The notes under the pieces: model-generated | What the model was told of the DNA's origin: nothing | Database searches by the model: none | Seen by the model: the letters and a program-made list of their open reading frames with translations, nothing else | Translations under genes and position numbers: made by a program | DNA from: Candidatus Moraniibacteriota bacterium | Lineage (GTDB): Bacteria > Patescibacteriota > Minisyncoccia > Moranbacterales > UBA2206 | Direction of reading: 5' to 3' | NCBI GenBank assembly: GCA_049304095.1 | Contig: JBAQNU010000022.1 | Span: 2,348-66,347 of the forward strand | DNA: 64,000 nt | In this document: positions 17,477-38,694 of the stretch, in pieces | Layout: every line of letters begins with the position of its first letter | Numbering within the stretch: the first letter of the stretch is position 1

Positions 17477-17622
17477 GATTTACGCCTGAGCCAAAAACAA
17501 TCTCCCAAAGCGCGTGGCCTCCTGGAGTTTGTTTTTTGCCTTGTTTATTTTTTAAGACGATTAAAGTTTTCTTTGACTAATTTTGGCTAGGTGTGAGCTT
17601 GTTTTTGACTCAGGCGTAAATC
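17477..17622 (+). repeat. 146-nt structured repeat element, copy 1 (candidate ncRNA or hairpin element)
   Basis: Outer inverted repeat GATTTACGCCTGAGCCAAAAAC/GTTTTTGACTCAGGCGTAAATC (21/22). Internal box A CAATCTCCCAAAGCGCGTGGCCT and box B CTAATTTTGGCTAGGTGTGAGCTT are shared with copies at 24068 (inverted) and 38548. Confidence 0.7.
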
Positions 17623-17636
17623 TTTTTGCAGATAGT

Positions 17637-18404
17637 CTATTCGCCAGAACTATTTTCTTGGGTCCCAGCCAATTCTTTGCGTAACTCGTCTAGGTTTGGC
17701 GTCCACTCATCAACAATAGTTTTTTCATCTCCAACTGGCGGTTCTTCCGCCGGGGTCGCTTTTTCAAAATAGCTGGATTTTCCATAGTCGGTTTTTTCTT
17801 TGAAAATATCATCAATGTTTTTTGGCGTGGAAAGTTTTTCGCTCATCGTCTTGTCTGTCACTTTTTGCAGTACATTTTCAATCGCGCCCCACTCCGAATC
17901 GATGTCACGTGGTGTGACCAAGGTTACTTCATCGCCTGGTTCGACTTTGAAGTAAGTGATGGAAGCCAGGAGCACGCGATATGCCTTGCCGTCTGCTGTC
18001 ACAAAAAAATTGCCATCAGTGTCTTGGTTGGCAGTGCCGATGGCCATTTTGCGCACGACTGGTCCGATTTGTTTGTAGATGAAAGATCCATCGGAAGTGA
18101 CAGTCAATTTCAACATATCACCTTTGACTAGCTTCGATTTGGAAGCATAGTTAGCTGGAACGGGATATTGTTTCCCATCCGTGCCAATCATTAGTTGTCC
18201 ATCAAAGGTGCCTTCGACGACGCGGTTATGCTCATCGTCTTCCTCTTCAGGCTTTCTTCGGCGACCAGTCTTTTTCTTGCCCTCCAGTTGCAAGAGCATT
18301 GATTTGGCGCCTTGCAAAGTCATTTCCGCATTAGAAATCATATCGCGAAGCGCTTGAATTTTTTGCGCGTTTTTTTCGCTCGTGTTGTTATTTTGTTCGT
18401 CCAT
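17637..18404 (-). CDS. Hypothetical protein (lineage-specific)
   Basis: 255-aa ORF with acidic termini. No recognisable motif. Confidence 0.5.
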   Translation of the reverse strand: MDEQNNNTSEKNAQKIQALRDMISNAEMTLQGAKSMLLQLEGKKKTGRRRKPEEEDDEHNRVVEGTFDGQLMIGTDGKQYPVPANYASKSKLVKGDMLKLTVTSDGSFIYKQIGPVVRKMAIGTANQDTDGNFFVTADGKAYRVLLASITYFKVEPGDEVTLVTPRDIDSEWGAIENVLQKVTDKTMSEKLSTPKNIDDIFKEKTDYGKSSYFEKATPAEEPPVGDEKTIVDEWTPNLDELRKELAGTQENSSGE

Positions 18405-18483
18405 TATGTTTTTTATTTTAGACTTTTTATTTCATTTTTTATGTCTAATTTGATTATACAATTTTTAGAAATTTAGTGCAAGT

Positions 18484-18507
18484 AGGGGTGATTCACGAAT
18501 CACCCCT
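18484..18507. promoter_or_regulatory. Perfect 10-bp palindrome AGGGGTGATT-cacg-AATCACCCCT in a divergent intergenic region
   Basis: Lies between the divergently transcribed genes starting at 18404 (-) and 18570 (+). No adjacent T-run. Candidate operator. Confidence 0.3.
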
Positions 18508-18569
18508 ATTCGACAATTTTTCAAATTAAAGCTAGAATGAGAAAGGTAAAAATTAATTTTTAAAAATTT

Positions 18570-19307
18570 ATGCAAAGAAAAAAAATCTTAAGTTTAGGCG
18601 GATTATTCTTGCTCGTCATTTTATTCTCCGGCTGCACTAATGACAGAGGAACATCCGGTCTTAGCAGTGGACTACTTGATACTCCTGGGCAAGCAAAAGA
18701 AAATGTGGCCAAATCTACGGAGCAGGAAAATACTAGGTTAAATAATACATTAAATGAAAATAATATGAGTTCAAATGCGCAGGCGTCACCAGTGATCAGC
18801 CAGGAATTGATTAAAAAATATCCTTTTGCGCTAATTAAAACTAGCTTGGGAGAAATTAAGGTTAAGTTTAGTGGAGAAACAGCGCCGCTCGCAGTGACGA
18901 ATTTTTTGCAATTGGCACAGAATAAGTTTTATGACAGTATAAAATTCCACCGAGTGATTAAGGGCTTTATGATTCAAGCGGGAGATCCGCTTTCTAAAGA
19001 TGATGCGATGATTGCTAGGTGGGGCACGGGTGGCCCAGGCTATCAATTTAAAGATGAACTAGCTGGAACGGAAAACTATCCACAAGGGACATTGGCGATG
19101 GCTAATTCTGGTCCTAACACCAATGGCAGTCAATTTTTCATCGTAACCGCCAGTCCAGCGGCACAACTTCCTGCGAGTTACACAGTTTTTGGAACAGTCG
19201 TTAGCGGGATAGACATCGCCCTCAAAATTGAAAATGTTAAAACTGGTTCGTCTGACCGGCCGGTGGAAAATGTGACCATCACAAGCATTGAACCGTTGGA
19301 AAAATAG
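18570..19307 (+). CDS. Cyclophilin-type peptidyl-prolyl cis-trans isomerase, probable lipoprotein
   Basis: Lipobox LLVILFSGCTND. FHRVIKGFMIQAGDP and the region GQFFIVT match the cyclophilin fold. Confidence 0.85.
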   Translation: MQRKKILSLGGLFLLVILFSGCTNDRGTSGLSSGLLDTPGQAKENVAKSTEQENTRLNNTLNENNMSSNAQASPVISQELIKKYPFALIKTSLGEIKVKFSGETAPLAVTNFLQLAQNKFYDSIKFHRVIKGFMIQAGDPLSKDDAMIARWGTGGPGYQFKDELAGTENYPQGTLAMANSGPNTNGSQFFIVTASPAAQLPASYTVFGTVVSGIDIALKIENVKTGSSDRPVENVTITSIEPLEK

Positions 19308-19375
19308 CCCTAATTTGCCAAAACGCGAGTTTGGTGATATATTACGAAATAGATTAACTATTATATTTTTAACCT

Positions 19376-19582
19376 ATGCCAGTAGCAAGAAAACGCCATA
19401 CTAAGGCCCGAAGAGACAGAGCACGAGTTTTCTATAAACTAAAGCCAAAAAATTTAGTAGAATGCCCGAACTGTAAAACGCAAATTGAACCACACATTGC
19501 TTGTAGTAATTGTGGGAAATATAAGGGCAAAGAAGTTATTGATACGACTAAAAAATTGGCAAGAAAAGCCAAGCAGAAATAA
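19376..19582 (+). CDS. rpmF: 50S ribosomal protein L32
   Basis: MPVARKRHTKARRDRAR plus CPNC...CSNC zinc ribbon; 68 aa. Confidence 0.8.
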   Translation: MPVARKRHTKARRDRARVFYKLKPKNLVECPNCKTQIEPHIACSNCGKYKGKEVIDTTKKLARKAKQK

Positions 19583-19585
19583 ACT

Positions 19586-20062
19586 ATGGCCAATCGGCAT
19601 CTTTCACGATCAGTCGCAATGCAATCGCTCTATGAGTGGGATTTTAAAGGACGCAAAAATGCCATGATGGCGGAGATTATGCAAAAAAACTTGCAAGAAT
19701 TTGCGCCGGGAATGGATGATATTTCTTTTGTGAAGACTTTGGTGGAAACGACAGTGGCTAATCAAGACAAGATTGATCCACTAATTGAAAAATGTGCGCC
19801 GGAATGGCCACTTGATCAGGTAACGCTGGTGGACAGAAATATTTTGCGACTAGGCATTTGTGAACTGTTGTTTGGTAACTATGAGGAAGTGCCACCAAAA
19901 GTGGCAATCAATGAAGCAATTGAACTGGCGAAATCTTTTGGCGGAGAGGCTTCTGGCCGGTTTGTCAACGGTGTGCTTGGTACGATTTATCGCGAGTTGG
20001 GCGAACCAATGAAAGATGATACGACGAAGAAAAATAAAAAAACTAAAGAGGAGAAGAAATAA
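19586..20062 (+). CDS. nusB: Transcription antitermination factor NusB
   Basis: [13 protein letters not shown]... and C-terminal [26 protein letters not shown]. Confidence 0.85.
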
Positions 20063-20086
20063 TTTCTAACTGGCTTGTTTCCAATT

Positions 20087-20134
20087 CAAAGTTTCGAATT
20101 ATCGAGATTGTGAATTGCAAATAGCGAAACTTTG
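20087..20134 (+). promoter_or_regulatory. Stem-loop overlapping the rnc start codon (possible RNase III autoregulatory target)
   Basis: CAAAGTTTCG at 20087-20096 pairs perfectly with CGAAACTTTG at 20125-20134 across a 28-nt loop. The 3' arm ends in the GTG start of rnc. Confidence 0.35.
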
Positions 20135-20826
20135 TGATTGAAGAGTTGGCGAAAAAAATCGGAGTGAAGTTCAATAAATTAGATCTCTTGCAGCAGGCCG
20201 TAACACATCGGTCCTATTTAAACGAGCATCGGGAATATAAATTGGAGCATAATGAACGCTTGGAATTTTTGGGCGACGCAGTTTTGGAGCTGGTCGTGAC
20301 GGAATATCTCTATAACAATTATCCGGAAAATCCCGAAGGCGAAATGACTAATTGGCGAGCAGCTTTGGTGTGTGGCGAGATGCTTTCTAAGATTTCCAAA
20401 GAACTTGGCGTGGAGGAATATCTCCTGATGAGCAGGGGCGAAGCCAAGGACACCGGGCGCGCACGTCAATATCTCCTGGCCAATGCTTTTGAAGCGATTA
20501 CTGGCGCAATCTATCTTGATCAAGGCAAGAAGGGATATGATGTTTGTCGCGATTTTATCTTGAAATACGTAGTGACGAAACTGCCTAACATCATCGAGAA
20601 AAAACTTTATCTTGATCCCAAAAGTCGTTTTCAAGAAGAAGCGCAAGATCGGGCGGGGGTTACTCCCAGCTATCGCGTTGTGAGTGAGAGTGGACCGGAT
20701 CATGATAAGAAATTTGTGGTGGGCGCGTTTTTGGCAGAAGAGCTGATAGCGAAAGGTGAAGGACTTTCCAAGCAAGAAGCGCAAAGAAGCGCAGCGGAAA
20801 AAGCGTTAGAAGAGAAGGGGTGGTAG
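20134..20826 (+). CDS. rnc: Ribonuclease III
   Basis: ERLEFLGDAVLELVVTEYLY signature; C-terminal dsRBD. Apparent GTG start. Confidence 0.9.
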   Translation: MIEELAKKIGVKFNKLDLLQQAVTHRSYLNEHREYKLEHNERLEFLGDAVLELVVTEYLYNNYPENPEGEMTNWRAALVCGEMLSKISKELGVEEYLLMSRGEAKDTGRARQYLLANAFEAITGAIYLDQGKKGYDVCRDFILKYVVTKLPNIIEKKLYLDPKSRFQEEAQDRAGVTPSYRVVSESGPDHDKKFVVGAFLAEELIAKGEGLSKQEAQRSAAEKALEEKGW

Positions 20827-20835
20827 GAATGAGTA

Positions 20836-20874
20836 GCCTGCCTACTCCGCCAGCTGGCGGATTCGGCAGGCGAG
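20836..20874. repeat. GC-rich palindromic repeat, copy 2
   Basis: GCCTGCCTAC TCCGCCAG|CTGGCGGA TTCGGCAGGC, 10 nt after the rnc stop. The inner 8-bp palindrome is perfect. Confidence 0.55.
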
Positions 20875-20983
20875 CAAGAATTAAAAAAAAGGTGTTTAGT
20901 GAATCTCGTGAAAGCGGGATTTTGTTTTTTTGGGAAAAGTATAGTAAGATAAAAATACATGTAGCACGCTGTATGATGACTTT

Positions 20984-23371
20984 ATGTTTTTGAAAAAACT
21001 AGAAATTAATGGTTTTAAATCTTTTGCCACCAAAACGGTGGTGGATTTTTCGGTGTCCAATAGTGAGAATGGTACGCCGGGAATCACAGCTATTGTTGGA
21101 CCAAATGGCAGTGGAAAATCCAATATTGCGGATGCGATGCGTTGGGTGATTGGTGAGCAATCAATGAAAAATTTGCGCAGCAAAAAAGCTGAAGATATCA
21201 TTTTTGCCGGTTCAGGAAAAAAAGCCAAATTAGGCAGTGCGCAAGTGACACTTTTTTTTGACAACAGCGAAAAACGGATTCCGCTGGATTTTTCGGAAGT
21301 AGCTGTATCGCGCAAAATTTTTCGCAGTGGCGAGAGTGAATATTTGATTAACGGTTCGCGTGTGAGGTTGCAAGACGTGGTGGATATTTTGGCCAAAGCC
21401 GGAGTGGGAAAAGAAAGTCATGCCATCATCAATCAAGGGATGGCCGACGCAGTTTTGAACGCCACTCCACTGGAACGGCGCTTTGTAATTGAAGAAGCGG
21501 CTGGGGTGAAGCAATATCAAATTAAAAAAGAACGTTCGCTCCGCAAAATGGAAACAACTAAGGAAAATTTGCTCAGAGTGGGGGAGCTGATTGAAGAAAT
21601 TCGACCACACCTGAAAGTCTTGAAACGCCAAGCGGAAAAAGCAGCGCAGAGCGAGATTGTGACAAGGGAGCTGAAAGAAAAACAAACTTTGCTCTATACT
21701 TATCTATGGAATAAATTTACGGCCGAAAAATTGAGATTGAGCGAAGAAAAAGATGAGTTGGGGCGACGTATGAACAATATTCAAAGAGAAGCGGATAAGC
21801 TGGCCGATGAAATTAGTAGCCATTCCAAAGAAGAAAAAGCCAATGAAAAGTTGGCGGAGCTGGAAAAAAAGCAAAGAGAAAAAAGAAATCAACTCAACGA
21901 TTTGGAGCGAGAGGCGCTCTTGCTTTCTGGGCGAGTGGAAATTGAGAGAGAAAAACAAAAAAGCATCCAAATTATCGAAGAGATTAAGATTAAAAGTCAA
22001 TTGGTGGATTTGGGTTATGTTAAAAGTAATTTGGATGAAATCCGACGTGACCAAGAAATGCTCATAAAAAAACTAAATGAAGCTCAGAATTTAGCGGAGC
22101 TGAAAAGCGTGCAGGATTTGGCCCAAAAAATCGGCCAAAAGCTGACTGAGTTGAAAGGGGATATTGAAAAGGGCCATACCTACCTACCTGCTACGCAGGC
22201 AGTCCGGCAGGCAAGCAAGAAAGAAGAAAAAATTCCTGATTCAAAACCCAAATTAGCCATCGTGCCCAAAATTGATACCCCGCTAATTTTAGAACTTAAC
22301 GCACAAATCAAAAAGGCGCGGGAAAATTTTAGCGCGCTGGAGGTGGAACTCAAAGATATTGCCGAGGAGATTCAAAAAGAGGTGGCGTTGGACCGAGAAA
22401 GGCGTCAGCAGTTTTTTCAGGTTGAGCGCGATTTGCGTCAAAAACAAGAAGAAGCGAATACTTTTCGCGATCGCTTTAATGATTCCAAGATTTCTCTGGC
22501 TAAAATTGAAGTGCGCGAAGAAGATTTGAAGGCGCGCGTTACCGAAGAATTGAAAATGGATGTTGAACTTTTGAGCAAGGAACCGCAGGAAGTGGCTGAT
22601 CAATTTGCGCTGGAAAGAGAAATTGCTAAATTGAAATTTCAAATGGAACAAATCGGAGGTATCGATCCACTCGTTCTCACTGAATATGATGAAACAGAAA
22701 AGCGCTTTCAATTTCTAACAGCCGAATCGCAAGATTTGGAAAATGCACTGGTTTCTTTGCGCGAAGTGGTGCGAGAGATGGAGAAAAAAGTGAATGAAAA
22801 GTTTCATGCTACTTTTGATGAAATCAACAAGGAATTTTCCAAATATTTTCGCATTATTTTTGGCGGAGGGGATGCGCACCTGACCAAGGTCAACATCCGT
22901 CCGCGAAAAACGAAAGAAATTTTGACGGAATTGGAAACGCCTGATGCGACGCAGGAAAAAGAAGAATCTCCGGAAGACGATTTGTCAGATGATGAAAAGA
23001 ACGAAATTGGCATTGATATCTCGGCTTGCCCTGCGGGAAAAAGAATTAGTAATCTTTCGATGCTTTCTGGCGGTGAACGTTCACTTACATCGCTCGCACT
23101 CCTTTTTGCCATCATTGCTCACAACCCGCCACCTTTTTCCATTCTAGATGAAGTTGAGGCGGCTTTGGACGAGGCTAACTCCAAAAGATTTGGGCGCATC
23201 ATTCAAGATCTTTCTGCCCGCACGCAATTTGTGACCATCACGCATAACCGCGAAACAATGCGTCAAGCGGCTCTGCTCTATGGTGTGACGATGGGCGAGG
23301 ACGGAATGTCAAAATTGCTTTCTGTGCGAATTGATCAGGTGGGACAGGGCGGAAAAATTTTGCAGGCCTAA
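20984..23371 (+). CDS. smc: SMC-family chromosome partition ATPase, unusually short (795 aa), no recognisable hinge
   Basis: N-terminal head: LEINGFKSF, GPNGSGKSNIADAMRWVIGEQS. C-terminal head: LSGGERSLTSLALLFAI, ILDEVEAALDE. Coiled-coil heptads lie between. The mid-region GHTYLPATQAVRQASKKEEKIPDSKPK is low-complexity and partly encoded by the GC-rich repeat. Confidence 0.8.
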   Translation: MFLKKLEINGFKSFATKTVVDFSVSNSENGTPGITAIVGPNGSGKSNIADAMRWVIGEQSMKNLRSKKAEDIIFAGSGKKAKLGSAQVTLFFDNSEKRIPLDFSEVAVSRKIFRSGESEYLINGSRVRLQDVVDILAKAGVGKESHAIINQGMADAVLNATPLERRFVIEEAAGVKQYQIKKERSLRKMETTKENLLRVGELIEEIRPHLKVLKRQAEKAAQSEIVTRELKEKQTLLYTYLWNKFTAEKLRLSEEKDELGRRMNNIQREADKLADEISSHSKEEKANEKLAELEKKQREKRNQLNDLEREALLLSGRVEIEREKQKSIQIIEEIKIKSQLVDLGYVKSNLDEIRRDQEMLIKKLNEAQNLAELKSVQDLAQKIGQKLTELKGDIEKGHTYLPATQAVRQASKKEEKIPDSKPKLAIVPKIDTPLILELNAQIKKARENFSALEVELKDIAEEIQKEVALDRERRQQFFQVERDLRQKQEEANTFRDRFNDSKISLAKIEVREEDLKARVTEELKMDVELLSKEPQEVADQFALEREIAKLKFQMEQIGGIDPLVLTEYDETEKRFQFLTAESQDLENALVSLREVVREMEKKVNEKFHATFDEINKEFSKYFRIIFGGGDAHLTKVNIRPRKTKEILTELETPDATQEKEESPEDDLSDDEKNEIGIDISACPAGKRISNLSMLSGGERSLTSLALLFAIIAHNPPPFSILDEVEAALDEANSKRFGRIIQDLSARTQFVTITHNRETMRQAALLYGVTMGEDGMSKLLSVRIDQVGQGGKILQA
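22188..22228 (+). repeat. GC-rich repeat, intragenic in-frame copy inside smc
   Basis: CCTACCTACCTGCTACGCAGGCAGTCCGGCAGGCAAGCAAG. Its 3' half (CGGCAGGCAAGCAAGAAAGAAG) matches copy 2's 3' flank (CGGCAGGCGAGCAAGAATTAAA). Confidence 0.5.
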
Positions 23372-23459
23372 CGGGCTATTATCAGATTTGCCTTTTCGGC
23401 GACAAACGCCTATAATTAAGTTGTAATTTTCAATTTAATCTTTAATTCTACCCACCAAA

Positions 23460-24062
23460 ATGTCTGAAATCTTAGAAGAACTGTTTGGGTCCAAAGAACG
23501 TGCACGCCTGTTGCGATTTTTCCTGCAAAATCCAGAGGTGGCCTTTGATTCGGCGGAAATAACGCGCCGTAATATGCTTAAATGGCCCAAAATTCGGCGC
23601 GATATGGATCTGCTCGCTCGCATAAAATTCGTGATAAAAAGCCAGCACAAAGGCAAAGCCAACTATCGCTTGAACCAAAACTTTGATTTCTATCCGGAAC
23701 TGAAAAATTTGATTGCCAAGTCTAACACCTCGCCACAATGCAAGAGTTTGGCCAAGATTTCTAATTTAGGCAGTGTGAAACTGGCAGTGGTCAGCGGAGT
23801 GTTTATCAACTATCAAAAAAGCAAAGCGGATATGATTTTGGTCGGGGATAACATTAGCAAAGCGAAATTAAACAATTTAATGAATAGTTTGGAGGCAGAA
23901 ATCGGCAAAGAAATCAATTTTGTTTTGATGACCATGGAAGAATTCAAATATCGTTTGAATATGCTCGATAAGTTTATTTTGGAATTTTTGGAGGGTCCGC
24001 ATGAAGAAGTGGTGAACAAGATTATGGGGCTCAAACAGTTTATCGCCAAGCGGAAGTTATAA
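23460..24062 (+). CDS. Hypothetical protein with N-terminal winged-helix-like domain
   Basis: ARLLRFFLQNPEVAFDSAEITRRNMLKWPKIRRDMDLLARIKF resembles a wHTH. The C-terminal half is unassigned. Confidence 0.4.
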   Translation: MSEILEELFGSKERARLLRFFLQNPEVAFDSAEITRRNMLKWPKIRRDMDLLARIKFVIKSQHKGKANYRLNQNFDFYPELKNLIAKSNTSPQCKSLAKISNLGSVKLAVVSGVFINYQKSKADMILVGDNISKAKLNNLMNSLEAEIGKEINFVLMTMEEFKYRLNMLDKFILEFLEGPHEEVVNKIMGLKQFIAKRKL

Positions 24063-24067
24063 TACAA

Positions 24068-24211
24068 GACTTACGCGTTTGCCAAAAGCAAGCTAACACC
24101 TTGCCAAACATAGCCTGATAAACGTAGCGGGATTGGGAAGTGAAAAAAAGCAAAAACAACCCCTAGAAGGCCACGCGCTTTGGAAGGTTGCTTTTGGTAA
24201 ATGCGTAAGTC
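24068..24211 (-). repeat. 146-nt structured repeat element, copy 3 (inverted orientation)
   Basis: Outer inverted repeat GACTTACGCGTTTGCCAAAAGCAA/TTGCTTTTGGTAAATGCGTAAGTC. The reverse complement contains box A CAACCTTCCAAAGCGCGTGGCCT and box B CTATGTTTGGCAAGGTGTTAGCTT. Confidence 0.65.
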
Positions 24212-24228
24212 ATGAATAAAGAAATAAA

Positions 24229-24642
24229 ATGCTTGAAAATAAAGCTAAAATTTTTGAGGGAAAAAGCTTGAATAATTTAATCAAGCTTTTTTTTGGCGCC
24301 CAGTATTTGAAAAGTAGGATTGTGTTGGTGCTTCTTTCCGTTTCCGCCCTCATCAATTTGCTCGATTGGTTGGCGCTCATAATTTTTTTGCGTCCGCCAG
24401 CAGGGACGGTTATAATCTTGCACTACAATGTTTATTTCGGCGTTGATCTCGCAGGCAAAGTTTTGCGTGCCTACGCGGTGCCTTTTATTGGTCTTTGCAT
24501 TCTGGGTATCAACTTTTTTCTGGCCGGCTATTTCTATCGACAGAAAGAACGCATCGCTAGCTACGTTTTGCTTATCAGCGCCCTTATCGTGCAACTCAGC
24601 TTGCTTATTTCCATAATCAGTGTTATTGTAGTCAATTATTAA
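24229..24642 (+). CDS. Hypothetical small membrane protein (4 TM)
   Basis: 137 aa, hydrophobic throughout. Confidence 0.4.
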   Translation: MLENKAKIFEGKSLNNLIKLFFGAQYLKSRIVLVLLSVSALINLLDWLALIIFLRPPAGTVIILHYNVYFGVDLAGKVLRAYAVPFIGLCILGINFFLAGYFYRQKERIASYVLLISALIVQLSLLISIISVIVVNY

Positions 24643-24653
24643 AAAGAGCCATT

Positions 24654-26348: not shown

Positions 26349-26352
26349 GTTA

Positions 26353-26383
26353 GGAGTTACACATTTCACCTCACAGCCGCATA
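26353..26383 (+). repeat. Conserved 3'-flank motif, copy B (GGAGTTACACATTTCACCTCACAGCCGCATA)
   Basis: 26/30 identical to 8087-8117. Placed 5 nt after the stop codon. Confidence 0.5.
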
Positions 26384-26402
26384 AGCCATAGAAGTAAAAA
26401 AT

Positions 26403-27422: not shown

Positions 27423-27434
27423 GTCACGATTGTA

Positions 27435-27474
27435 AAACAAAAACACTCTCGGGTAAACGAGAGTGTTTTTGTTT
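27435..27474. terminator. Bidirectional terminator between convergent genes
   Basis: AAAACAAAAACACTCTCG-GGTAAA-CGAGAGTGTTTTTGTTT, a perfect 16-17-bp stem with T/A runs on both sides. Confidence 0.75.
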
Positions 27475-27542
27475 GGTCGGGTAATGTTATACCAAACTAA
27501 TTTCTGTAAAAAAGGTACAAGGTTTAGCTTAACGCATAAACT

Positions 27543-28190: not shown

Positions 28191-28401
28191 CTTCCTTTCT
28201 ATTTTACCCCGTGTCCCAAGCGTTGGGATTTCACGAAGTTTTAAATTATTAATGTGCTTGCGTTGAAGCTATGATTGTCTTGGCTTTCGACAATCGTCTC
28301 TCTAAGATAAAGTTTAACTCATCTAAAACTCGCGTCAACTAGACAATTTTAGTGTTTCGACGTGTAGTATGAAAAGACTTTAGTTAACCTCAGCTAATTT
28401 A

Positions 28402-28410
28402 TGCTATAAT
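28402..28410 (+). promoter_or_regulatory. Extended -10 (TGcTATAAT) upstream of patatin gene
   Basis: TGCTATAAT about 20 nt upstream of the ATG. The -35 is weak. Confidence 0.35.
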
Positions 28411-28428
28411 GAAAAAATAGAAGTTATA

Positions 28429-29289: not shown

Positions 29290-29340
29290 TAAGTCATAAT
29301 AGTGCTAAACTGGCTTGACTGAAAAGGAAAGGCAAAAACT

Positions 29341-30887: not shown

Positions 30888-30908
30888 AAGATTTAGATTA
30901 TTTCTTGG

Positions 30909-30936
30909 CCATCCTCCAGTTTGGGGATGGTTTTTC
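30909..30936 (+). terminator. Terminator after ABC permease
   Basis: CCATCC-TCCAGTTTGG-GGATGG followed by TTTTTC. Confidence 0.55.
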
Positions 30937-30939
30937 TAT

Positions 30940-30967
30940 TTGACAAGATTTTTAATAATGATATGAT
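30940..30967 (+). promoter_or_regulatory. Promoter TTGACA-N16-TATGAT upstream of AntA-like gene
   Basis: TATTTGACAAGATTT. The same 15-mer recurs at 31893-31907 upstream of csoR. Confidence 0.45.
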
Positions 30968-30996
30968 ATCAGTATAATTATTTAAAAACAAAAAAA

Positions 30997-31884
30997 ATGA
31001 ACGAGCTAATAAATATAAAAGTGATCCAAAAGGATTTTAATGGTGAGAAAAAGAGATTTGTGAATGCCAGAGAGTTATATAATTGGCTTGGCGTAGGCAG
31101 GGACTTTTCCAATTGGATAAAAGATAGGATTACGAAATATGACTTCGTGGAAGATCTCGATTTTTTTCTCGCCTTCGCCAAATTTGGCGATGGATTCGAA
31201 GGCTTTAATAAGGCAAAAGCTATTGACCCCAAAACTGGTAAGATATTAGCTAGAGAGTATGTCATCTCAATTGATATGGCTAAAGAACTGGCGATGCTTG
31301 AAAACAACGAAAGGGGGAAAATGGTTAGAAAGTATTTCATTCGAGTGGAAAGTGATTTCAAAAAGGTGATGCGAGTTGCTAAGATGGATCCGAAATTCAT
31401 CAATCAATTGGCGAGCCAGTTTTTTGAAACCAGAGAGGAAACGAAAGAATTTCGTCGAGATTTCACAGACTCTATCAAAGATTTCGTCGCAGTGAAAAAT
31501 TATGGAACATACACGGATATGCTTTATAATTTTTTGTTTCTGGAAAGAGCCAAGGAATATCGCAAACTTCTAAATCTTGCCAAAAAAGATTTTACTAGAA
31601 ATTATATGTACGAGGAAATAATTTTTACCATCGGCGCTTTTGAAACAGGGCTTTCTGGCGAGGTGGAAAAAGCTGCCAAGAAATTAAAAAGGCTGCTAAC
31701 CCAAAAAGAATTTGAGAAAATTTTCCAAGAATTTTCTGCTCAAAGGAATTGGCTGGCCTATCAAAAAAGAGCGAGAAATATTATGGCGACTTACGACGAG
31801 GAACTGCGTCGAATCAAGCATCCGAAGTTGATTGATTACCGCAAAGAATTTAGTCAGGAGGATATTCAGAAGTTGTTGGGGTGA
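30997..31884 (+). CDS. Phage antirepressor-like protein (AntA-type N-terminal domain)
   Basis: FNGEKKRFVNARELYNWLGVGRDFSNWIKDRITKYDFVEDLDF matches my recollection of the AntA/ORF6N phage domain (…VVSARELHEFL…DFS.WIK.RI.KYGF.E..DF). The C-terminal 200 aa are unassigned. Confidence 0.55.
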   Translation: MNELINIKVIQKDFNGEKKRFVNARELYNWLGVGRDFSNWIKDRITKYDFVEDLDFFLAFAKFGDGFEGFNKAKAIDPKTGKILAREYVISIDMAKELAMLENNERGKMVRKYFIRVESDFKKVMRVAKMDPKFINQLASQFFETREETKEFRRDFTDSIKDFVAVKNYGTYTDMLYNFLFLERAKEYRKLLNLAKKDFTRNYMYEEIIFTIGAFETGLSGEVEKAAKKLKRLLTQKEFEKIFQEFSAQRNWLAYQKRARNIMATYDEELRRIKHPKLIDYRKEFSQEDIQKLLG

Positions 31885-31896
31885 GGTAGATTTTAT

Positions 31897-31940
31897 TTGA
31901 CAAGATTTCCAAGGGGAGTATATTATACCTAGGGGGGAGG
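31897..31940 (+). promoter_or_regulatory. Promoter (TTGACA-N16-TATATT) with overlapping candidate CsoR operator ATACCTAGGGGGGAGGTGT
   Basis: The -35 is at 31897-31902. The ACCT-G6-AGGT pseudo-palindrome at 31925-31940 has the G-tract inverted-repeat shape described for CsoR operators. Confidence 0.4.
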
Positions 31941-31967
31941 TGTTTCAAATGCAAAATGTAAAAATCA

Positions 31968-32009
31968 CCTTGCCTACCCTGCCTACCGGACAGGCAGGCG
32001 GCAGGCAGG
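31968..32009. repeat. GC-rich palindromic repeat, copy 3 (in csoR 5' leader)
   Basis: CCTTGCCTACC CTGCCTACC GGA CAGGCAGG CGGCAGGCAGG. Confidence 0.55.
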
Positions 32010-32055
32010 AAATGAAAAATTATTAAGGCGAATAATTTCCTAAATTTATAACAAT

Positions 32056-32325
32056 ATGCAAAAGGAAGATGAACAAATCTTAATCGGTCTCAAAAAAGCT
32101 AGGACGCATTTGGCCAAAGTGATTGCGATGGTGGAGGCGGGGGAATATTGTGTTTCGATTATGCAGCAGAATCTGGCAGTGGTTGGACTTTTGAAATCGG
32201 CCAACGACAAGCTCTTGGCGCGACATCTCAGTAGTTGTTTTATGAATGCCATGAAAGGCACGAACGAAAAACGTAAGCAAGAGATGATTTCGGAAATTTT
32301 GCAACTGAATAAATTAGCCAAATAA
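32056..32325 (+). CDS. csoR: CsoR/RcnR-family metal-sensing transcriptional repressor
   Basis: 89 aa with the x-C...H-x3-C triad (YCVS...RHLSSC) and DUF156-like helical layout. Sits upstream of copA. Confidence 0.75.
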   Translation: MQKEDEQILIGLKKARTHLAKVIAMVEAGEYCVSIMQQNLAVVGLLKSANDKLLARHLSSCFMNAMKGTNEKRKQEMISEILQLNKLAK

Positions 32326-32326
32326 T

Positions 32327-33466
32327 ATGGAAGAAAAAACTTGTTGCTGTGCGGGAAAAAAAACACAAAGTTTGAAAAAACAATGGCTAGGCGCATTGGG
32401 CATTTTATTTTTTTTGACGCTTTTCTATCGGATTTTTCAAAGCTTGGGTATGGTGGAAAAATTGGGCGCTCTCAATCCTGGTGCTAGCTATGGCGCGGCG
32501 TTTTTGGTGGGAATTGTTGCTAGCGTTTCCAGCTGTCTTGCCATTGTCGGATCGGTGGTAATTGCCTTTAGCGAGAAATATAGGGCGAAAAAAGAAGCCT
32601 TTTTTGATAATGCCATCAAGCCGAACATGCTTTTTCACGCCGGAAGGCTTAGTAGCTTTTTCATCTTAGGCGGACTACTTGGAGCAATTGGTGGAGGGAT
32701 TAATTTGAGTGGCCGTTTTGTGGCAATTTACACGCTAATAATAGCCCTTGTTATGGCAATTTTGGGACTCAATATTTTAGGTTTTTTCCCCAGGATTACT
32801 GCGCTTGGTCTGTGTATGCCCAAAGTGTTTAGGGAAAGATGGGATAACTTGCGAAAATCGGAAAATAGTCTGATGCCGTTTTTTCTTGGTAGTTTTAGTT
32901 TTTTTCTGCCTTGCGGGTTCACGCAAAGCATGCAATTGATTGCGCTAGCTTCTGGTAGTTTTTGGCAGGGAGGGATGATCCTTTTTCTTTTCGCACTGGG
33001 AACGGTTCCAGCGCTTATGGCACTGGGCATTACGACCGCCTGGACTCGCAGTAAAAATATTTTAGTTTTTCAAAAAGTGGCCGGAGTTTTGATTTTGCTG
33101 TTTGCTTTCTATGCTTTTAATTCTGGTTTAGCGCTAATTGATGTCAGAAATAATATTTTTGAAAAATCCAATTCAAAACAAAAAAATTTAAAAACTGATG
33201 TGGCGGAACAAATTGTGGAAATGCATGTCATAAGCGCTGGATTTTCGCCGAGCACGCTCAAAATTAAAAAAGGTGTGCCGGTGCGTTGGGTGATTAAGGG
33301 GGATAGTGTGACAAGCTGTACAAATAAAATTATTGTGCCGAGTCTTGGTATTTCGCAGAATATTAGCTCCGGGGACAATATTGTCAATTTTACGCCCGAT
33401 AAGGCGGGAGAAATTCCTTTTAGTTGCTTCATGGGAATGGTCCGTGGTAAGTTTATAGTAGAATAA
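32327..33466 (+). CDS. Membrane protein: Cys-rich N-terminus, DsbD_2-like TM domain, C-terminal cupredoxin-like domain
   Basis: CCAGKK N-terminus and about 8 TM segments. The C-terminus SPSTLKIKKGVPVRWVIKGDSVTSCTNKIIVPSLGI...GEIPFSCFMG resembles the cupredoxin_1-type domain seen next to Cu ATPases. Confidence 0.5.
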   Translation: MEEKTCCCAGKKTQSLKKQWLGALGILFFLTLFYRIFQSLGMVEKLGALNPGASYGAAFLVGIVASVSSCLAIVGSVVIAFSEKYRAKKEAFFDNAIKPNMLFHAGRLSSFFILGGLLGAIGGGINLSGRFVAIYTLIIALVMAILGLNILGFFPRITALGLCMPKVFRERWDNLRKSENSLMPFFLGSFSFFLPCGFTQSMQLIALASGSFWQGGMILFLFALGTVPALMALGITTAWTRSKNILVFQKVAGVLILLFAFYAFNSGLALIDVRNNIFEKSNSKQKNLKTDVAEQIVEMHVISAGFSPSTLKIKKGVPVRWVIKGDSVTSCTNKIIVPSLGISQNISSGDNIVNFTPDKAGEIPFSCFMGMVRGKFIVE

Positions 33467-33478
33467 TTCAAAAAATAT

Positions 33479-35671
33479 ATGCCAACAAGAAAAACCATCT
33501 TTGAAATAACGGGCATGACTTGTGCCAGTTGCAGCGCTAGTAATGAAAGAGCACTGACTAAGACTATTGGGGTCAAAAAAGCTTCCATTAATTTTGCTAC
33601 GAAAAAAGCGCTGGTAGAATATGACGATGCCGTTTTAAATGAAGTGGAAATTAAAAAAACCATTCTAGCCAATGGCTATGGCATCAAGGGAGAGGTGAGT
33701 CGGAAATATCAACTGATAAACAAATATGCGCAATACAAGAATGAAATTTTTGGTAACATCAAGGTGCGTCTTGTGCTCTCAGCACTTTTTTCCTTACCGC
33801 TACTCTTGGGAATGTTTTTTCAAATCAAGGCCGGTGTGAATTTTTGGGGAATTGATTTGGTGATGTGGCTGCATATTGTCTTGGCTTCAATCATCGTGTT
33901 CGTTTTCGGTTGGCCATTCCACCGGATGGCCTACGCACAAATGAAAAAAGGCGAGTTAAGCATGGATACATTGGTTTCCATGGGAACACTCGTGGCCTAT
34001 TTTTTCAGTCTTTGGTCACTGGCCAATCACCAAAAAGATTATTTGGAAACTGGAGCTGTGATTATTACGCTAATTCTTTTGGGAAAATATTTGGAAGATT
34101 TGAGTGTGCAAAAAACGGGAGACGCGATGAGGAGTCTCATGGAATTGGGAGTAAAAAAAGCGCGCATCTTGGTGCGAGGAGAAGAGCGGGAAGTGGAGAT
34201 TGAGAAACTAAAAGTGGGCGATGTTATGCTGATTCGGCCAGGTGAGAAAATTCCACTGGATGGCTATATTATAGAAGGCGAATCAGCCATTGATGAGTCA
34301 ATGCTGACTGGAGAATCACTACTCACGGAAAAAAAGGTGGGTGATTATGTTTTTGGATCAATGCTTAATCAAAATGGCATTATCAAGGTGAGAGTAGAGA
34401 AAGTTGGTGAGGGCACGGTTTTGGCGCAAATTATTCGGACAGTTGAAGAGGCGCAAAATTCTAAAGCGCCGATTCAAAAATTAGCCGATCAAACTGCACG
34501 CATTTTTGTGCCGGTAGTATTATTTCTGGCAGCTATAACCTTTTTGGGCTGGTTTTTTTTGGCGCAGGGCGGAACGCGAGCGGTAATCTATGCTGTGTCT
34601 GTGCTCGTTATTGCTTGTCCTTGTGCGTTGGGCCTGGCCACGCCAACGGCGATTATGGCTGGAGCGGGCTATGGGGCGAAACGCGGAATTTTGTTTAAAA
34701 CTGGTGAAAGCTTTGAGCGGATTCGAAATATTTCCATGGTGATTTTTGATAAAACTGGAACGCTCACAAAAGGCAAGCCGGCCGTTTTGAAATTTTTCCT
34801 AAATCCGGGGGAAAAAATAACGGAAGCGGAGCTTTTGCAGTTGGCCTATAGTCTGACGATTAGCTCTGAGCATCCCTATTCCAAGTCAATTGTTAACTAT
34901 GTTAAATCACAAGGGTTAGAAAAGGAAATGCAGAAGATAGAAAAAATCAAAGAACATAAAGGCAAGGGAATTTCTGGCATGGACGAGAAAAATAGAAATG
35001 TATTTTTGGGCAATAAAAAAATTATCGAGCAAGAGAAGATAGAAAATGCCTGGGCAGAAAGTTTGGAGACGAAAGCGGAAAACAATGTCGGGGCACTATC
35101 TTTTATTGGTCGAGAAAAGACAATTCTTGGTGCGTTTTTGGTGGCAGATGAAATTCGGGATGAAGCAACTGAAGTGATTTCCAAGTTGAAAAGGATGAGA
35201 TTGAAAGTAGCGATGATTTCCGGAGACAGAGAAGTGGTTACCAGTTCAGTGGCAAAAACATTGGGAATTAGTTTAGTCATCTCTGATGTTTTGCCACATG
35301 AAAAATTAGAGGCGATTAAGAATTTCCAAGCGCAGGGAGAGAAAGTTATTTTCGTGGGAGATGGAATCAATGATGCGCCCAGCCTCATCGCTGCCGATCT
35401 GGGTATTGCGATGGGAAGCGCGATGGATATTGCCAAAGAAGCGGGGCAAATTGTAATGCTCGAAAATAATTTAAATAAAGTGTTAGAGGCAATTCACATT
35501 TCCCGCAAGACTTTTCGCACAATCAGGCAAAATCTCTTTTGGGCTTTTTTCTATAATATCGTAGCTATTCCTCTGGCAATGCTGGGTTTTCTCACTCCAG
35601 CCATTGCGGCAGGAGCGATGTCATTTAGCTCAATTTCAGTGGTGCTCAATAGTTTGCGCGCAGCAAAGTAG
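33479..35671 (+). CDS. copA: Copper-translocating P1B-type ATPase
   Basis: HMA domain [14 protein letters not shown] motif ([12 protein letters not shown]), [15 protein letters not shown]. Confidence 0.9.
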
Positions 35672-35699
35672 ACCTAATTTTTATTCAAAAATATTTTTT

Positions 35700-36536
35700 A
35701 TGGAAATTATTATTGCCAAAAATGCTGGATTTTGTTTTGGGGTTAAAAGAGCGGTGGATATGGTGGAAAAAGCCTTGGAAGAAGGTGGCAAGGTCTATTG
35801 TTTGGGGTCACTTATTCACAATCAGCAGGTGATTGAAAGGTTGGCGCAAAAAGGTCTAGTAACAGTGAAAAAAGTTGTGGATATTCCGGCTGGCGCTAAA
35901 TTTGTGGTGCGCAGTCATGGAATTGATCCAGGCATTGTGGAGAGCATTGTCGCGTGTGGCGGTGAAATTTTGGATGCGACTTGCCCTTTTGTGCGGAGAG
36001 CACAACTGGTGGCAAAAAAATTTCATGAGGAAAACTATGAGGTGGTCATTTGTGGCGATCCGGCGCATGCCGAAGTGATTGGCATTAATGCTTGGGCTAA
36101 AAATTGTGCGAAAATAATTCATGACGCATCTGAGGTGAAAAATTTAGAATTTAAAAGTACCGTGGGCGTTTTGAGCCAGACGACGCAAAAAAAGGAATTG
36201 TTCGATAGTGTCGTTCAAGAATTAGCCAAAAAAACTAAAGATTTAGTCATTGAAAATACGATTTGCCTTGATAGCTCGACTAAGCAAGCGGAGGTTTCCG
36301 CGCTGGCCAAGGAGGTGGATCTTATGATTGTGGTGGGAGGAAAAAATTCTAGCAATACCGGAAAATTAGTGCAGTTGAGCGAAGCGCAAAAGACTCCCAC
36401 AAAACACATCGAGACAGCGGCAGAAGTGCAAGAAGAGTGGTTTTGCGCTGTGCAAAAGGTAGGCATTGCCGCTGGTGCGTCCACGGCACAATTTTTAATT
36501 GACGAAGTGGTGGACAAAATCAACAGTTTGTGCTAG
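35700..36536 (+). CDS. ispH: 4-hydroxy-3-methylbut-2-enyl diphosphate reductase
   Basis: MEIIIAKNAGFCFGVKRAV start, conserved Cys ligands, and HN/SSNT motifs. The longer ORF from 35604 overlaps copA and is rejected. Confidence 0.9.
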   Translation: MEIIIAKNAGFCFGVKRAVDMVEKALEEGGKVYCLGSLIHNQQVIERLAQKGLVTVKKVVDIPAGAKFVVRSHGIDPGIVESIVACGGEILDATCPFVRRAQLVAKKFHEENYEVVICGDPAHAEVIGINAWAKNCAKIIHDASEVKNLEFKSTVGVLSQTTQKKELFDSVVQELAKKTKDLVIENTICLDSSTKQAEVSALAKEVDLMIVVGGKNSSNTGKLVQLSEAQKTPTKHIETAAEVQEEWFCAVQKVGIAAGASTAQFLIDEVVDKINSLC

Positions 36537-36566
36537 ATTGGGGTCTAAGTATAATAATCATTTGCG

Positions 36567-37298
36567 ATGCAAAAAGAAATCATTTTTCCCATCAGGATCA
36601 ATAAATATCTGGCCTATAGCAATTTTTGCACGCGCCGAGCGGCGGATGAAATGATTGCGTCTGGTCGGGTGAAAATTAATGAGCGTCTAGCGGTTTTGGG
36701 TGACAAGGTTCAGGCGCAGGATCAAGTAACTGTTGACAAAGATAGTAAGCGCAATAAGCCGTTGGTCTATTTGGCTTTCAATAAACCGCGTGGCATTGTG
36801 ACGCACAGTCCGCAAAAAGGCGAAAAAAGCATCGAAGAGATCTTCAAATTTCCGCAAAAAGTTTTTCCTGTAGGACGCCTTGACAAAGATTCGCACGGCC
36901 TCATCATTCTCACCAACGATGGTCGCATAACAGACCGGCTGCTTAATCCTGATCACGAACACGAAAAAGAATATGTGGTCAAAGTTGATCGGACGATTAG
37001 TCCGGGGTTTTTGAAAAATATGGCCGAAGGTGTGGTTTTGGATGATGGGTACAAAACTAAACCGGCGCAGGTGAAAAAGATTGATGAGTTAACCTTTTCC
37101 ATTATTCTCACTGAAGGCAAGAAAAGACAAATTCGTCGTATGTGCGAAAGATTAGAGCGCACAGTGCTCGATCTCAGGCGCAGTCGCATCATGAATATCG
37201 AACTAGGAAAGTTGGGTCCGAGAGAATCTCGTTCGATTGAGGGTGCTGAGCTTGCGCAACTACTGGGAAGTATTGGAATTGATAATCCATGGCAATAA
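36567..37298 (+). CDS. RsuA/RluB-family pseudouridine synthase with S4 domain
   Basis: S4 N-terminus, NKPRGIVTH, and catalytic VGRLDKDSHGLIILTNDG. Confidence 0.85.
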   Translation: MQKEIIFPIRINKYLAYSNFCTRRAADEMIASGRVKINERLAVLGDKVQAQDQVTVDKDSKRNKPLVYLAFNKPRGIVTHSPQKGEKSIEEIFKFPQKVFPVGRLDKDSHGLIILTNDGRITDRLLNPDHEHEKEYVVKVDRTISPGFLKNMAEGVVLDDGYKTKPAQVKKIDELTFSIILTEGKKRQIRRMCERLERTVLDLRRSRIMNIELGKLGPRESRSIEGAELAQLLGSIGIDNPWQ

Positions 37299-37306
37299 AT
37301 TTCGTT

Positions 37307-37335
37307 TTGACAAAAAAACAGAAAATTCGTATAAT
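37307..37335 (+). promoter_or_regulatory. Consensus sigma70 promoter TTGACA-N17-TATAAT upstream of KH-protein/trmD
   Basis: Perfect hexamers with a 17-nt spacer. An approximately 90-nt leader follows. Confidence 0.6.
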
Positions 37336-37430
37336 AAAATTGATAAGTAAGAGCGTTGCAATAGGGGTGGTCGATCTTCCGAAGCACTTTTACTTCTAAT
37401 TCAAATAAGCTTTAATCTAGAACTACTAAA

Positions 37431-37781
37431 ATGACTACAATTCAAGTTAGCGATGTGGAGTTTGTGGAATATGTTGTGAAGCAAATCGTCAGTCATCCCG
37501 ATGATGTCAAGGTGGAAAGAAAAATTGATGAAATGGGTGTGCTTATCACGCTTGATGTTAATCTGGAGGATATGGGCATGATTATCGGTCGCGAAGGAGC
37601 AACAGCGAAAGCTTTGCGCACACTCCTGCGAGTGATTGGTGCCAGAAACAATGCCAGAGTTAACCTTAAAATCAATGAACCGGAAGGATCAGCCAGAAAA
37701 CCACGAGAAGACCGCGAACCAAGAGAGCCCAGAGAAGAGGTTAGAAAAAGTATCGATGATGTTGTCGGTGATATTGTCTAA
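37431..37781 (+). CDS. khpA: KH-domain RNA-binding protein (YlqC/KhpA family)
   Basis: GMIIGREGATAKALRTLLRVIG KH core. Position before trmD as in rpsP-KH-rimM-trmD operons. Confidence 0.7.
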   Translation: MTTIQVSDVEFVEYVVKQIVSHPDDVKVERKIDEMGVLITLDVNLEDMGMIIGREGATAKALRTLLRVIGARNNARVNLKINEPEGSARKPREDREPREPREEVRKSIDDVVGDIV

Positions 37782-37805
37782 GACTTTTCTTCTAAAATGA
37801 AAAAA

Positions 37806-37835
37806 CAAAAAGGCCAGCGCAAGCTGGCCTTTTTT
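37806..37835 (+). terminator. Terminator/attenuator after KH gene
   Basis: GGCCAGC-GCAA-GCTGGCC followed by TTTTTT. Confidence 0.6.
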
Positions 37836-37842
37836 GGTTTGT

Positions 37843-37851
37843 TTTGGTATA
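37843..37851 (+). promoter_or_regulatory. Extended -10 TGGTATAAT immediately upstream of trmD
   Basis: Lies 12 nt before the trmD ATG. Would give a near-leaderless transcript. Confidence 0.35.
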
Positions 37852-37862
37852 ATAGAAGTATT

Positions 37863-38510
37863 ATGCAATTTCATGTTGTTACAATTTTTCCGTCTATTTT
37901 AGACTCCTATCTAGGGGAATCGATTATTGGTCGTGCCCGAAAAAACGGGGTGATTGAGGTGCACGCGCACAATTTGCGCGACTATACGACTGACAAGCAT
38001 GGTAAAGTTGATGATACGCCCTATGGTGGTGGAGCGGGAATGGTGCTCCAAGTTCAGCCAATTCATGCTTGCGTTGAAAAAATAAAAGAGAAAATTATTG
38101 ATAAAAAGAAAACACGGATAATTCTTTTTTCCGCCAAAGGAAAGAAATATACGGAGAGAACAGCAGAAAGGCTTTCTAAATATGATAATTTAATTTTGAT
38201 TTGTGGTCGCTATGAAGGTGTGGATGAACGCGTGGTGCAGAATATTTGCGATGAAGAAATTTCCATCGGTGATTATGTGCTCACGGGTGGAGAATTGCCT
38301 GCGATGGTTCTCATTGATTCGGTAACACGGCTACTTCCTGAAGTTTTGGGAAATGTTGAGAGCGCAAAATATGAATCGCACAGTCGGAAAAACTATAAAG
38401 AACATCCGCAATATAGTAAGCCCGCTAGTTTCAATGGTTGGTCGGTGCCGGAAGTGCTTCTGGGTGGAAATCATAATGAGATAGCTAAATGGCGGGAAAA
38501 GATAAACTAG
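37863..38510 (+). CDS. trmD: tRNA (guanine37-N1)-methyltransferase
   Basis: MQFHVVTIFP, the GGGAGMVL SAM loop, and EGVDERV. The upstream in-frame ATG at 37797 lies inside the terminator and is rejected. Confidence 0.9.
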   Translation: MQFHVVTIFPSILDSYLGESIIGRARKNGVIEVHAHNLRDYTTDKHGKVDDTPYGGGAGMVLQVQPIHACVEKIKEKIIDKKKTRIILFSAKGKKYTERTAERLSKYDNLILICGRYEGVDERVVQNICDEEISIGDYVLTGGELPAMVLIDSVTRLLPEVLGNVESAKYESHSRKNYKEHPQYSKPASFNGWSVPEVLLGGNHNEIAKWREKIN

Positions 38511-38547
38511 GCAGAATAATTATAATAGAGTAGATAAATAATAATTT

Positions 38548-38694
38548 GCGACTCAGGCCTGCCCTAAAAGCAATCTCCCAAAGCGCGTGGCCTTCAAAGA
38601 TTTGTTTTTGTTTTTTTTAGATTGATGTTATTGATGTTCCTCTAAACTAATTTTGGCTAGGTGTGAGCTTACTTTTAGGGCAGGCCTAAGTCTC
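38548..38694 (+). repeat. 146-nt structured repeat element, copy 2
   Basis: Outer inverted repeat GCGACTCAGGCCTGCCCTAAAAG/CTTTTAGGGCAGGCCTAAGTCTC (21/23). Boxes A and B are identical to copy 1. Confidence 0.7.

Follow-up and report, generated by a model that had tools for sequence, protein, structure and literature searches.

Several families of short palindromic repeats are known to travel within bacterial transcripts. The bcr1, ERIC and Correia repeats, which resemble transposable elements of the miniature inverted-repeat type (MITEs), are co-transcribed with other genes, form RNA hairpins that carry compensatory changes, and are cleaved by RNase III or RNase E (PMC3184786, PMC10969869); ERIC hairpins are cut by RNase E and those of Correia by RNase III, and mRNA levels change (PMC3184786, PMC10969869). 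Compensatory hairpins are found in all three and also in the likewise MITE-like REPINs (PMC3184786, PMC3116915). Here we describe three palindromic intergenic elements, each 143-146 nt long, in a 64,000-nt stretch of DNA from a Candidatus Moraniibacteriota bacterium (contig JBAQNU010000022.1; the whole stretch is hereafter the window), together with five further distinct copies on metagenome contigs of the same Moranbacteria lineage. The family is a real feature and follows the same logic as the ERIC/bcr1/Correia/REPIN class; it forms no new category, and we do not read it as a new class of RNA gene. On balance, and by a narrow preference, we regard it as a lineage-restricted, non-autonomous, MITE-like palindromic intergenic repeat family of ~145 bp, related in a functional sense to ERIC, bcr1 and Correia, whose hairpin is kept by selection on one strand. 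The literature searched describes no intergenic repeat family for the Candidate Phyla Radiation (CPR)/Patescibacteria, nor repeats of this layout.

The core of box A, CCAAAGCGCGTGGCCT, has three exact occurrences in the window, where 0.31 matches are expected even with three mismatches allowed, and this excludes a chance origin of the three copies. Searches of the 64 kb with a profile hidden Markov model (HMM) and with a covariance model each return these three copies alone (E ~1e-33 to 1e-45; ~1e-40 per copy with the HMM). In alignment the copies are colinear, with a mean column identity of 80%, and each forms a near-perfect palindrome with arms of 31-34 nt and 85-90% complementarity. Their layout consists of semi-conserved tips, a closing helix of 24-27 bp, two invariant internal boxes, A and B (the latter TTTGGCwAGGTGTkAGCTT), and a fast-evolving centre. 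The element ends read GAyTTAC...GTAArTC and the termini are 79% identical between copies, while the flanks of different copies are no more alike than shuffles; the repeat unit is therefore exactly the palindrome. A longer element had been suggested by ~48 nt of extra sequence that accompanies, on one side, the insertion between trmD and ftsW, and was rejected as a family feature in view of the unrelated flanks.

A preliminary description of this locus had positioned copies 1 and 3 exactly and copy 2 (as 38548-38694) too widely by 2 nt at each end, and our alignment bears out both the boxes it found in all three copies and the complementary outer helices, specific to each copy, that it reported. 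Its interpretation of copy 2 as a 'stem flip' of copy 1 fails, the copies being colinear at ~80% identity with the same box order; the stretch GACTCAGGC common to copies 1 and 2 is a coincidence of palindromic sequence. The components of each copy are as follows.

17477..17622, minus strand: copy 1, whole element, 146 nt (covariance-model search, 158.5 bits on the minus strand); this strand turns all stem mismatches into G-U pairs and is also the sense strand of the flanking genes
17477..17500: outer-helix arm of copy 1, GATTTACGCCTGAGCCAAAAACAA, pairing with 17599-17622
17502..17520, plus strand: box A of copy 1, CTCCCAAAGCGCGTGGCCT
17578..17598, plus strand: box B of copy 1, TAATTTTGGCTAGGTGTGAGC
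17599..17622: second outer-helix arm of copy 1, TTGTTTTTGACTCAGGCGTAAATC
17637-18404 and 17012-17455, both minus strand: genes flanking copy 1, a 255-aa open reading frame (ORF) and GtrA
38550..38692, minus strand: copy 2, whole element, 143 nt (covariance-model search, 150.4 bits on the minus strand); the G-U-compatible strand is antisense to trmD and ftsW
38550-38573 and 38669-38692: outer-helix arms of copy 2
38575-38593 and 38648-38668, both read on the plus strand: boxes A and B of copy 2
37797-38510 and 38720-39829, both plus strand: genes flanking copy 2, trmD and ftsW
24068..24211, plus strand: copy 3, whole element, 144 nt (covariance-model search, 154.1 bits on the plus strand); this strand is G-U-compatible and is sense for both flanking genes
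24068-24091 and 24188-24211: outer-helix arms of copy 3
24168-24186 and 24092-24112, both read on the minus strand: boxes A and B of copy 3
23460-24062 and 24229-24642: genes flanking copy 3, a 200-aa ORF and a 137-aa ORF

Beyond the window, a scan of JGI metagenomes with the two-box pattern returned four contigs, all from one sample (Ga0172379). Contig L003 carries the trmD-ftsW orthologue of copy 2, whereas L004, L005 and L006 are new loci, and a second copy in L005 was found with the HMM (L005a, L005b). Walking out from homologues of SMC, FtsW and L32 yielded two more orthologues of copy 1, L060/L074 (95% SMC identity) and L075, and the distinct loci now known number seven. The best named SMC and FtsW homologues come from Candidatus Moranbacteria/Moraniibacteriota (CPR/Patescibacteria). 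The covariance model found no copies in ~150 kb from relatives at 76-89% protein identity, and the exact two-box pattern had only two chance matches among 185,579 GTDB species representatives, both inside coding regions of unrelated bacteria. A 15-mer of box A matched 51 loci in IMG/VR, none with box B or an HMM match and all of them chance, while blastn against phage and plasmid collections gave no match. Rfam contains no match to the family, in keeping with its proposed novelty: neither a gathering-threshold scan of the whole window nor a scan of copy 1 at E-values up to 10, which gave only spurious miRNA models, produced anything relevant. The sole curated RNA families in the window are an L10 leader (4700-4820; 45.3 bits, barely above the gathering score) and a tRNA gene (14424-14495). 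As far as seen, the family is confined to one species-level Moranbacteria lineage.

Evidence of insertion is clearest between trmD and ftsW. In the window and L003, where it contains the element, this spacer measures 209 nt; the element-free spacers of three close relatives are far shorter, at 12 nt for L072 (FtsW identity 93%), 32 nt for L073 (89%) and 7 nt for L068 (86%). A weaker case is the spacer downstream of the 255-aa gene, which is 35 nt long in L063 and L067 (82% relatives) and where the next gene is a non-orthologous GtrA. The preliminary description had held the compensatory stems to argue against a mobile repeat; the site empty in three relatives constitutes presence/absence polymorphism and contradicts that argument. 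Covariation and mobility are not mutually exclusive, because known MITE-like repeats also have compensatory hairpins (PMC3184786, PMC3116915). The other sign of a MITE for which a check had been proposed, a target-site duplication, was not seen at the five complete copies. Tested strictly as a MITE, then, the element is below 500 bp (143-146 nt) and non-coding, has in every complete copy complementary termini of 24-27 bp, partly conserved in sequence, within the ~4-30 bp usual for terminal inverted repeats, and is multi-copy, dispersed over seven loci and polymorphic (empty in L072, L073 and L068); no flanking duplication of 2-10 bp was seen.

The copy 1 locus, in turn, is a three-way recombination mosaic that switches at the element ends (17400-17660 compared with L074 and L075). 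Left of copy 1 the window matches L074, inside the element L074 matches L075 exactly, and to the right the window matches L075; L074 and L075 differ by 8-20% on both sides of the element and are identical across it. At the left junction the window and L074 have the element tip (GATTTAC, 7 nt) duplicated, unlike L075.

The surroundings are those of an ordinary chromosome (~42% GC), with genes for DnaX, GtrA, PPIase, L32, NusB, RNase III, SMC, TrmD, FtsW, MurG/C/B, ProRS and SHMT. All three window copies lie in short spacers between co-directional genes. They had been reported to sit 6-40 nt past a stop codon in either orientation; both orientations are borne out, and the distances, measured as 14 nt (copy 1), 39 nt (copy 2) and 5 nt (copy 3), depart slightly from that range. 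Across the family, copies occur in both orientations relative to transcription and beside unrelated genes. Envelope-sugar genes (GtrA, GT2, PMT, PGM/PMM, a sugar nucleotidyltransferase and a glycosyltransferase cluster) adjoin six of the seven loci, and such neighbourhoods are strain-variable regions. In L005 one glycosyltransferase gene stands between two co-oriented copies, L006 holds its copy between divergent genes, and in L004 the upstream phosphoglucomutase (PGM) ORF takes its stop codon from inside the element stem. Assembly also breaks in or at an element, as in contigs L004, L005 and L079. Beside copy 2, between ftsW and murG, the region 39883-44406 encodes a His_Phos protein, two proteins lacking a Pfam match and a Bro-N protein; the 86% relative L068 lacks these four genes, its ftsW lying directly against murG, and in L003 unrelated DNA takes their place, so that the region looks like a strain-specific island.

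The outer helix provides evidence that structure is maintained. Covariation was assessed on eight distinct sequences aligned in both orientations, several of them related by descent (copy 1 and L060; copy 3, L005a and L005b). On either strand the predicted RNA folds have energies between -49 and -57 kcal/mol and z-scores between -5.5 and -8.7. Of 27 pairs in the closing helix, 13 are invariant and nine have changed on both sides, including CG/GC and UA/AU swaps (columns 7 and 12-14); no score from 500 column shuffles was as high as that observed, and pairing falls to 30-46% once the partner is displaced by 1-3 columns. The covariation proposed earlier from three copies is thus sustained, with a 7-bp segment of the helix free to covary. 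Covariation of a closing helix is also expected of any palindromic DNA repeat, and the internal helices are invariant among the eight sequences.

More striking is the distribution of imperfections between strands. On the strand used in the preliminary description, on which the boxes are read (hereafter the box strand), 90.9% of the outer helix is paired, with zero G-U pairs, against 98.6% on its complement, where the wobble-pair signal resides. Within the 24-bp core the mismatched cells number 16; every one reads A-C on the box strand and G-U on the complement, and no transversion mismatch occurs. These cells represent at least seven independent events (two-sided binomial p = 0.016), one of which arose between the orthologues copy 1 and L060. 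The asymmetry may be the trace of selection on a single-stranded fold of the complementary strand, the main alternative being a strand-biased C-to-T mutation.

Comparison of copy 1 with its L060 orthologue shows where change has accumulated. The centre differs at 11 of 56 positions and the stems and boxes together at 4 of 90 (p = 0.005), with the outer stems changed at 1 of 48; in this one orthologous pair stems and boxes have changed about five-fold less than the centre. Among paralogous copies the centre is 48% identical (33% at random, hence near saturation) and the boxes 91-97%; because the centre is near saturation, conservation of the boxes does not merely reflect youth of the copies. 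Divergence at four-fold degenerate sites, taken over seven genes nearby, is 19.6%, equal to that of the centre. In the L060 copy itself (L060:5021-5165, aligned to 17477-17622), 9 of 14 substitutions, polarised by the family consensus at conserved positions, are T-to-C or A-to-G in the L060 lineage, a direction unusual for an AT-rich genome.

How might such a repeat be maintained? Individual copies entered separate intergenic locations, in most cases a few bases past a stop codon and inside strings of co-directional genes, and are probably co-transcribed with their neighbours. No sigma-70-type promoter or intrinsic-terminator consensus was found in the elements, and having no promoter or terminator of their own they are most simply passengers in operon transcripts. 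A terminator scanner likewise finds none; the hairpin is followed by T-rich tails on the box strand only, and at most loci that strand runs antisense to the genes. An internal local hairpin followed by the T-run was also tried as an intrinsic terminator and rejected, its pairing being only partly kept; the T-run, earlier described as conserved, is indeed shared in part but proves only semi-conserved with more copies and is lost in L006. Selection would act on a hairpin that the complement of the box strand forms when single-stranded, most likely as RNA, which could act on the operon transcript either as a double-strand-specific processing site or as a hairpin protecting 3' ends, that is, a barrier to 3' exonucleases. 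A perfect helix of at least 24 bp is a canonical RNase III substrate. RNase III is encoded in the window (20134-20826) and would be the natural candidate to cut a helix of two or more turns, while the invariant boxes may serve as a conserved internal-loop or protein-binding module. Correia, ERIC, REP and bcr1 are established or supposed to work in this manner (PMC3184786, PMC10969869), and by analogy a role in mRNA processing or stability is suggested.

Several considerations weigh against selection on the transcript, or weaken the grounds for a MITE-like repeat kept in this manner. Firstly, no direct repeat flanks any of the five complete copies and none emerges from comparison of the filled and empty trmD-ftsW sites; since target-site duplications decay with age (PMC10969869), their absence is not decisive. 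The 64-kb window likewise holds no parent insertion sequence (IS) or transposase with the same termini. Secondly, the strand evidence does not point uniformly to mRNA. Of six interpretable loci, five have the G-U-compatible strand as sense strand (copies 1 and 3, L004, L005a and L005b), a bias that is not significant (p = 0.22) and to which one subfamily contributes three of the five. The exception, copy 2, has two private mismatches that are C-A on its own sense strand, and mRNA-level selection therefore fails to explain it. Boxes A and B are imperfect inverted copies of each other, and their pairing, if real, would be better on the box strand (three invariant G-U pairs, A-C on the other); because the boxes never vary, this pairing is uninformative on the question of strand. 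Thirdly, the sample comprises eight sequences only, several of them kin. A calibration of in-situ constraint on four-fold sites (p = 9e-5) was downgraded, being unsafe at a locus that is a recombination mosaic, and only the within-element contrast was retained; that contrast can mean constrained stems and boxes or a hypermutable loop, both of which depend on structure. The pair formed by copy 2 and L003 is too similar, at too low a local divergence, for a second test of constraint. Finally, the selected form may be RNA or single-stranded DNA.

This last point bears on the strongest competitor, a DNA-level element whose single-stranded hairpin, formed on one strand, is recognised and moved by a strand-specific HUH/Y1 transposase or a recombinase encoded elsewhere in the genome, in the manner of REPINs or IS200/IS605. 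The boxes would be protein-binding sites, and the arms would be complementary since only foldable copies are mobilised or since one arm is re-templated. Single-strand transposition is expected to leave no target-site duplication, as at the five complete copies, and the strand asymmetry, present in the antisense copy 2, goes with the element and is independent of which way the locus is transcribed. Compensations of transversion type match in frequency the divergence of the near-saturated centre, which arm re-templating would produce more easily than stepwise selection, and recombination and junction variability fall exactly at the termini (L075 against L074; the GATTTAC duplication). REPINs also offer a precedent, having the same hairpin with compensatory changes in its less conserved part (PMC3116915). 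Set against this, a Pfam scan of ~45 window proteins revealed no transposase (DDE, Y1/RAYT), serine or tyrosine recombinase or integrase; the architecture is the reverse of that in REPINs, with invariance greatest in internal boxes instead of terminal REP 16-mers; and the ends carry no GTAG/CGTC tag. We consider such an element doubtful, though deserving of attention.

Two more unconventional possibilities, which we jointly regard as unlikely, are that the repeat has been domesticated as a host-selected RNA module of a new class, or that it spreads through a hairpin in which one arm is re-templated from the other. In the former, a covarying closing helix of two or more turns would combine with an invariant asymmetric internal loop, ACACCUAGCCAAA opposite AGGCCACGCGCUUUGG, on the G-U-compatible strand, a motif by which a CPR-specific factor for RNA binding or processing would be brought to operon transcripts, above all to those of genes for envelope glycosylation. 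The latter, arm re-templating via a hairpin intermediate, would represent a mode of mobilisation undescribed for bacterial repeats.

The view taken in the preliminary description, that these are independent structured non-coding RNA genes or cis-regulatory RNAs, vertically inherited and immobile, now appears very unlikely. It accommodates the covariation of the closing helix with its G-U-only imperfections, boxes that stay invariant beside a near-saturated centre, very stable folds and absence from Rfam. Orthologous sites are empty in close relatives, however, and the family is missing from sampled relatives below ~93% identity and, as the exact two-box pattern, from the 185,579 GTDB representatives. 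Nor do the elements possess transcription signals of their own, with no promoter or terminator consensus, or a consistent position and orientation in cis: they occur in both orientations beside unrelated genes, one copy overlaps a stop codon, and their internal structure lacks covariation support.

We attach a similarly low probability to functionless relics of a past burst, with arms kept complementary by replication template-switching as a repair artefact and boxes conserved only through youth. Quasi-palindrome correction by template-switching is an established mutational mechanism, the family is restricted to one species-level lineage and it has no demonstrable function. But the near-saturated centre beside such conserved boxes indicates that the copies are not young relative to the neutral rate, the five-fold deficit of change in stems and boxes within the orthologous pair runs counter to the proposal, and an unbiased arm-to-arm correction would neither lower the substitution rate nor explain G-U pairs on the same strand throughout. 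A protein-coding reading is rejected, with stops and frame-shifting indels that differ between copies, indels in the centre, no frame open in all of them, and no match of the translated frames to a database of 5.8 billion proteins in a search for ORFs called across copies.

Other repeats were noted in the window and its relatives. A second, unrelated palindromic repeat of ~175 nt occupies the Nramp-RlmN spacer (8103-8283), with 22-nt outer arms and a predicted fold of -80.6 kcal/mol. It includes the GC-rich hairpin CCTGCCTGCC-GGTA-GGCAGGGCAGG; the left half of the repeat matches the first bases of contig L005 (L005:1-93) at 93.5% identity, and the hairpin recurs at 31971-32014 and three times in a 76%-identity relative (L064:1893-1914, 6907-6928 and 11190-11212). 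Just upstream of the Nramp transporter gene (6620-8083), an inverted repeat with the core ATTCCCGCGAAGGCGGGAAT (6362-6393 and 6516-6547, arms 122 nt apart) has no Rfam match. A giant ORF of 3029 aa (52933-62022) contains at least 23 repeats, spaced 190-460 nt, of a near-identical DNA core, GGCAACGTCGGCATCGGGACGACG, encoding GNVGIGTT. The window ends share an 82%-identical direct repeat (1-166 and 63065-63230), the minus strand of which encodes paralogous small-ORF fragments (...FLAIIAKIEL). In an 82%-identity relative where the element family is missing, an unrelated nested palindrome of 146 nt (L067:2097-2242), with 28-nt outer and 21-nt inner arms, lies ~350 nt upstream of the gene for a large serine recombinase.

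The genomes of CPR/Patescibacteria are tiny and streamlined. A repeat that has spread within one Moranbacteria species may find use as a marker for strain typing and assembly breaks, or in tracing the part that mobile DNA and recombination play in shaping reduced genomes. If transcribed, it would be a candidate point of post-transcriptional control in a group whose RNA biology is almost entirely undescribed.

Among known systems, integron attC sites resemble the present element: they are imperfect palindromes (57-141 bp) whose structure is conserved over sequence, they are recognised in the form of a folded single strand, and they stand immediately behind cassette ORFs; the L005 glycosyltransferase gene flanked by two co-oriented copies adds to the likeness. 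The element nevertheless has neither the RYYYAAC/GTTRRRY core sites, arranged in attC as R''/L''...L'/R', nor a co-oriented array next to an intI integrase in the window, and is dispersed among housekeeping genes in both orientations. Homology to the consensus of a named family (ERIC, Correia, bcr1, RUP or BOX) was not found with Rfam or with blastn against the phage and plasmid collections, and the host phylum differs. REPINs resemble it as symmetric hairpin units of ~100 nt that are confined to single lineages and persist in them, carry compensatory changes and have been proposed to move through a single-strand intermediate without classical duplication (PMC3116915). They differ in consisting of inverted REP units, with invariant terminal 16-mers around a variable spacer and a small REP hairpin with a GTAG/CGTC tag at each end; in the present family no such units occur, the invariant parts are internal, the outer helix varies and the window has no RAYT gene.

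ERIC/IRU (127 bp, Enterobacteriaceae) and Correia/NEMIS (~104-157 bp, Neisseria) come closer in form, being imperfect palindromes of 100-160 bp that occur in both orientations, in many cases shortly downstream of a gene, and form part of mRNAs (PMC3184786, PMC10969869). Their terminal inverted repeats are conserved and flanked by TA duplications, and Correia also has an IHF site and promoter elements, whereas the present element has semi-conserved termini, a covarying 7-bp helix segment and no duplication that we could see. From bcr1 (~155 bp, Bacillus cereus group) it is set apart by the lack of a visible duplication, a single long hairpin, invariant internal boxes, the absence of sequence similarity and a host in another phylum. 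In size, intergenic location, copy number and a distribution not conserved between close strains the two are alike (PMC3184786); bcr1 is in addition co-transcribed with its neighbours, and compensatory changes keep its RNA double-stranded (PMC3184786), which is the behaviour we propose, conditionally, for the Moranbacteria repeat.

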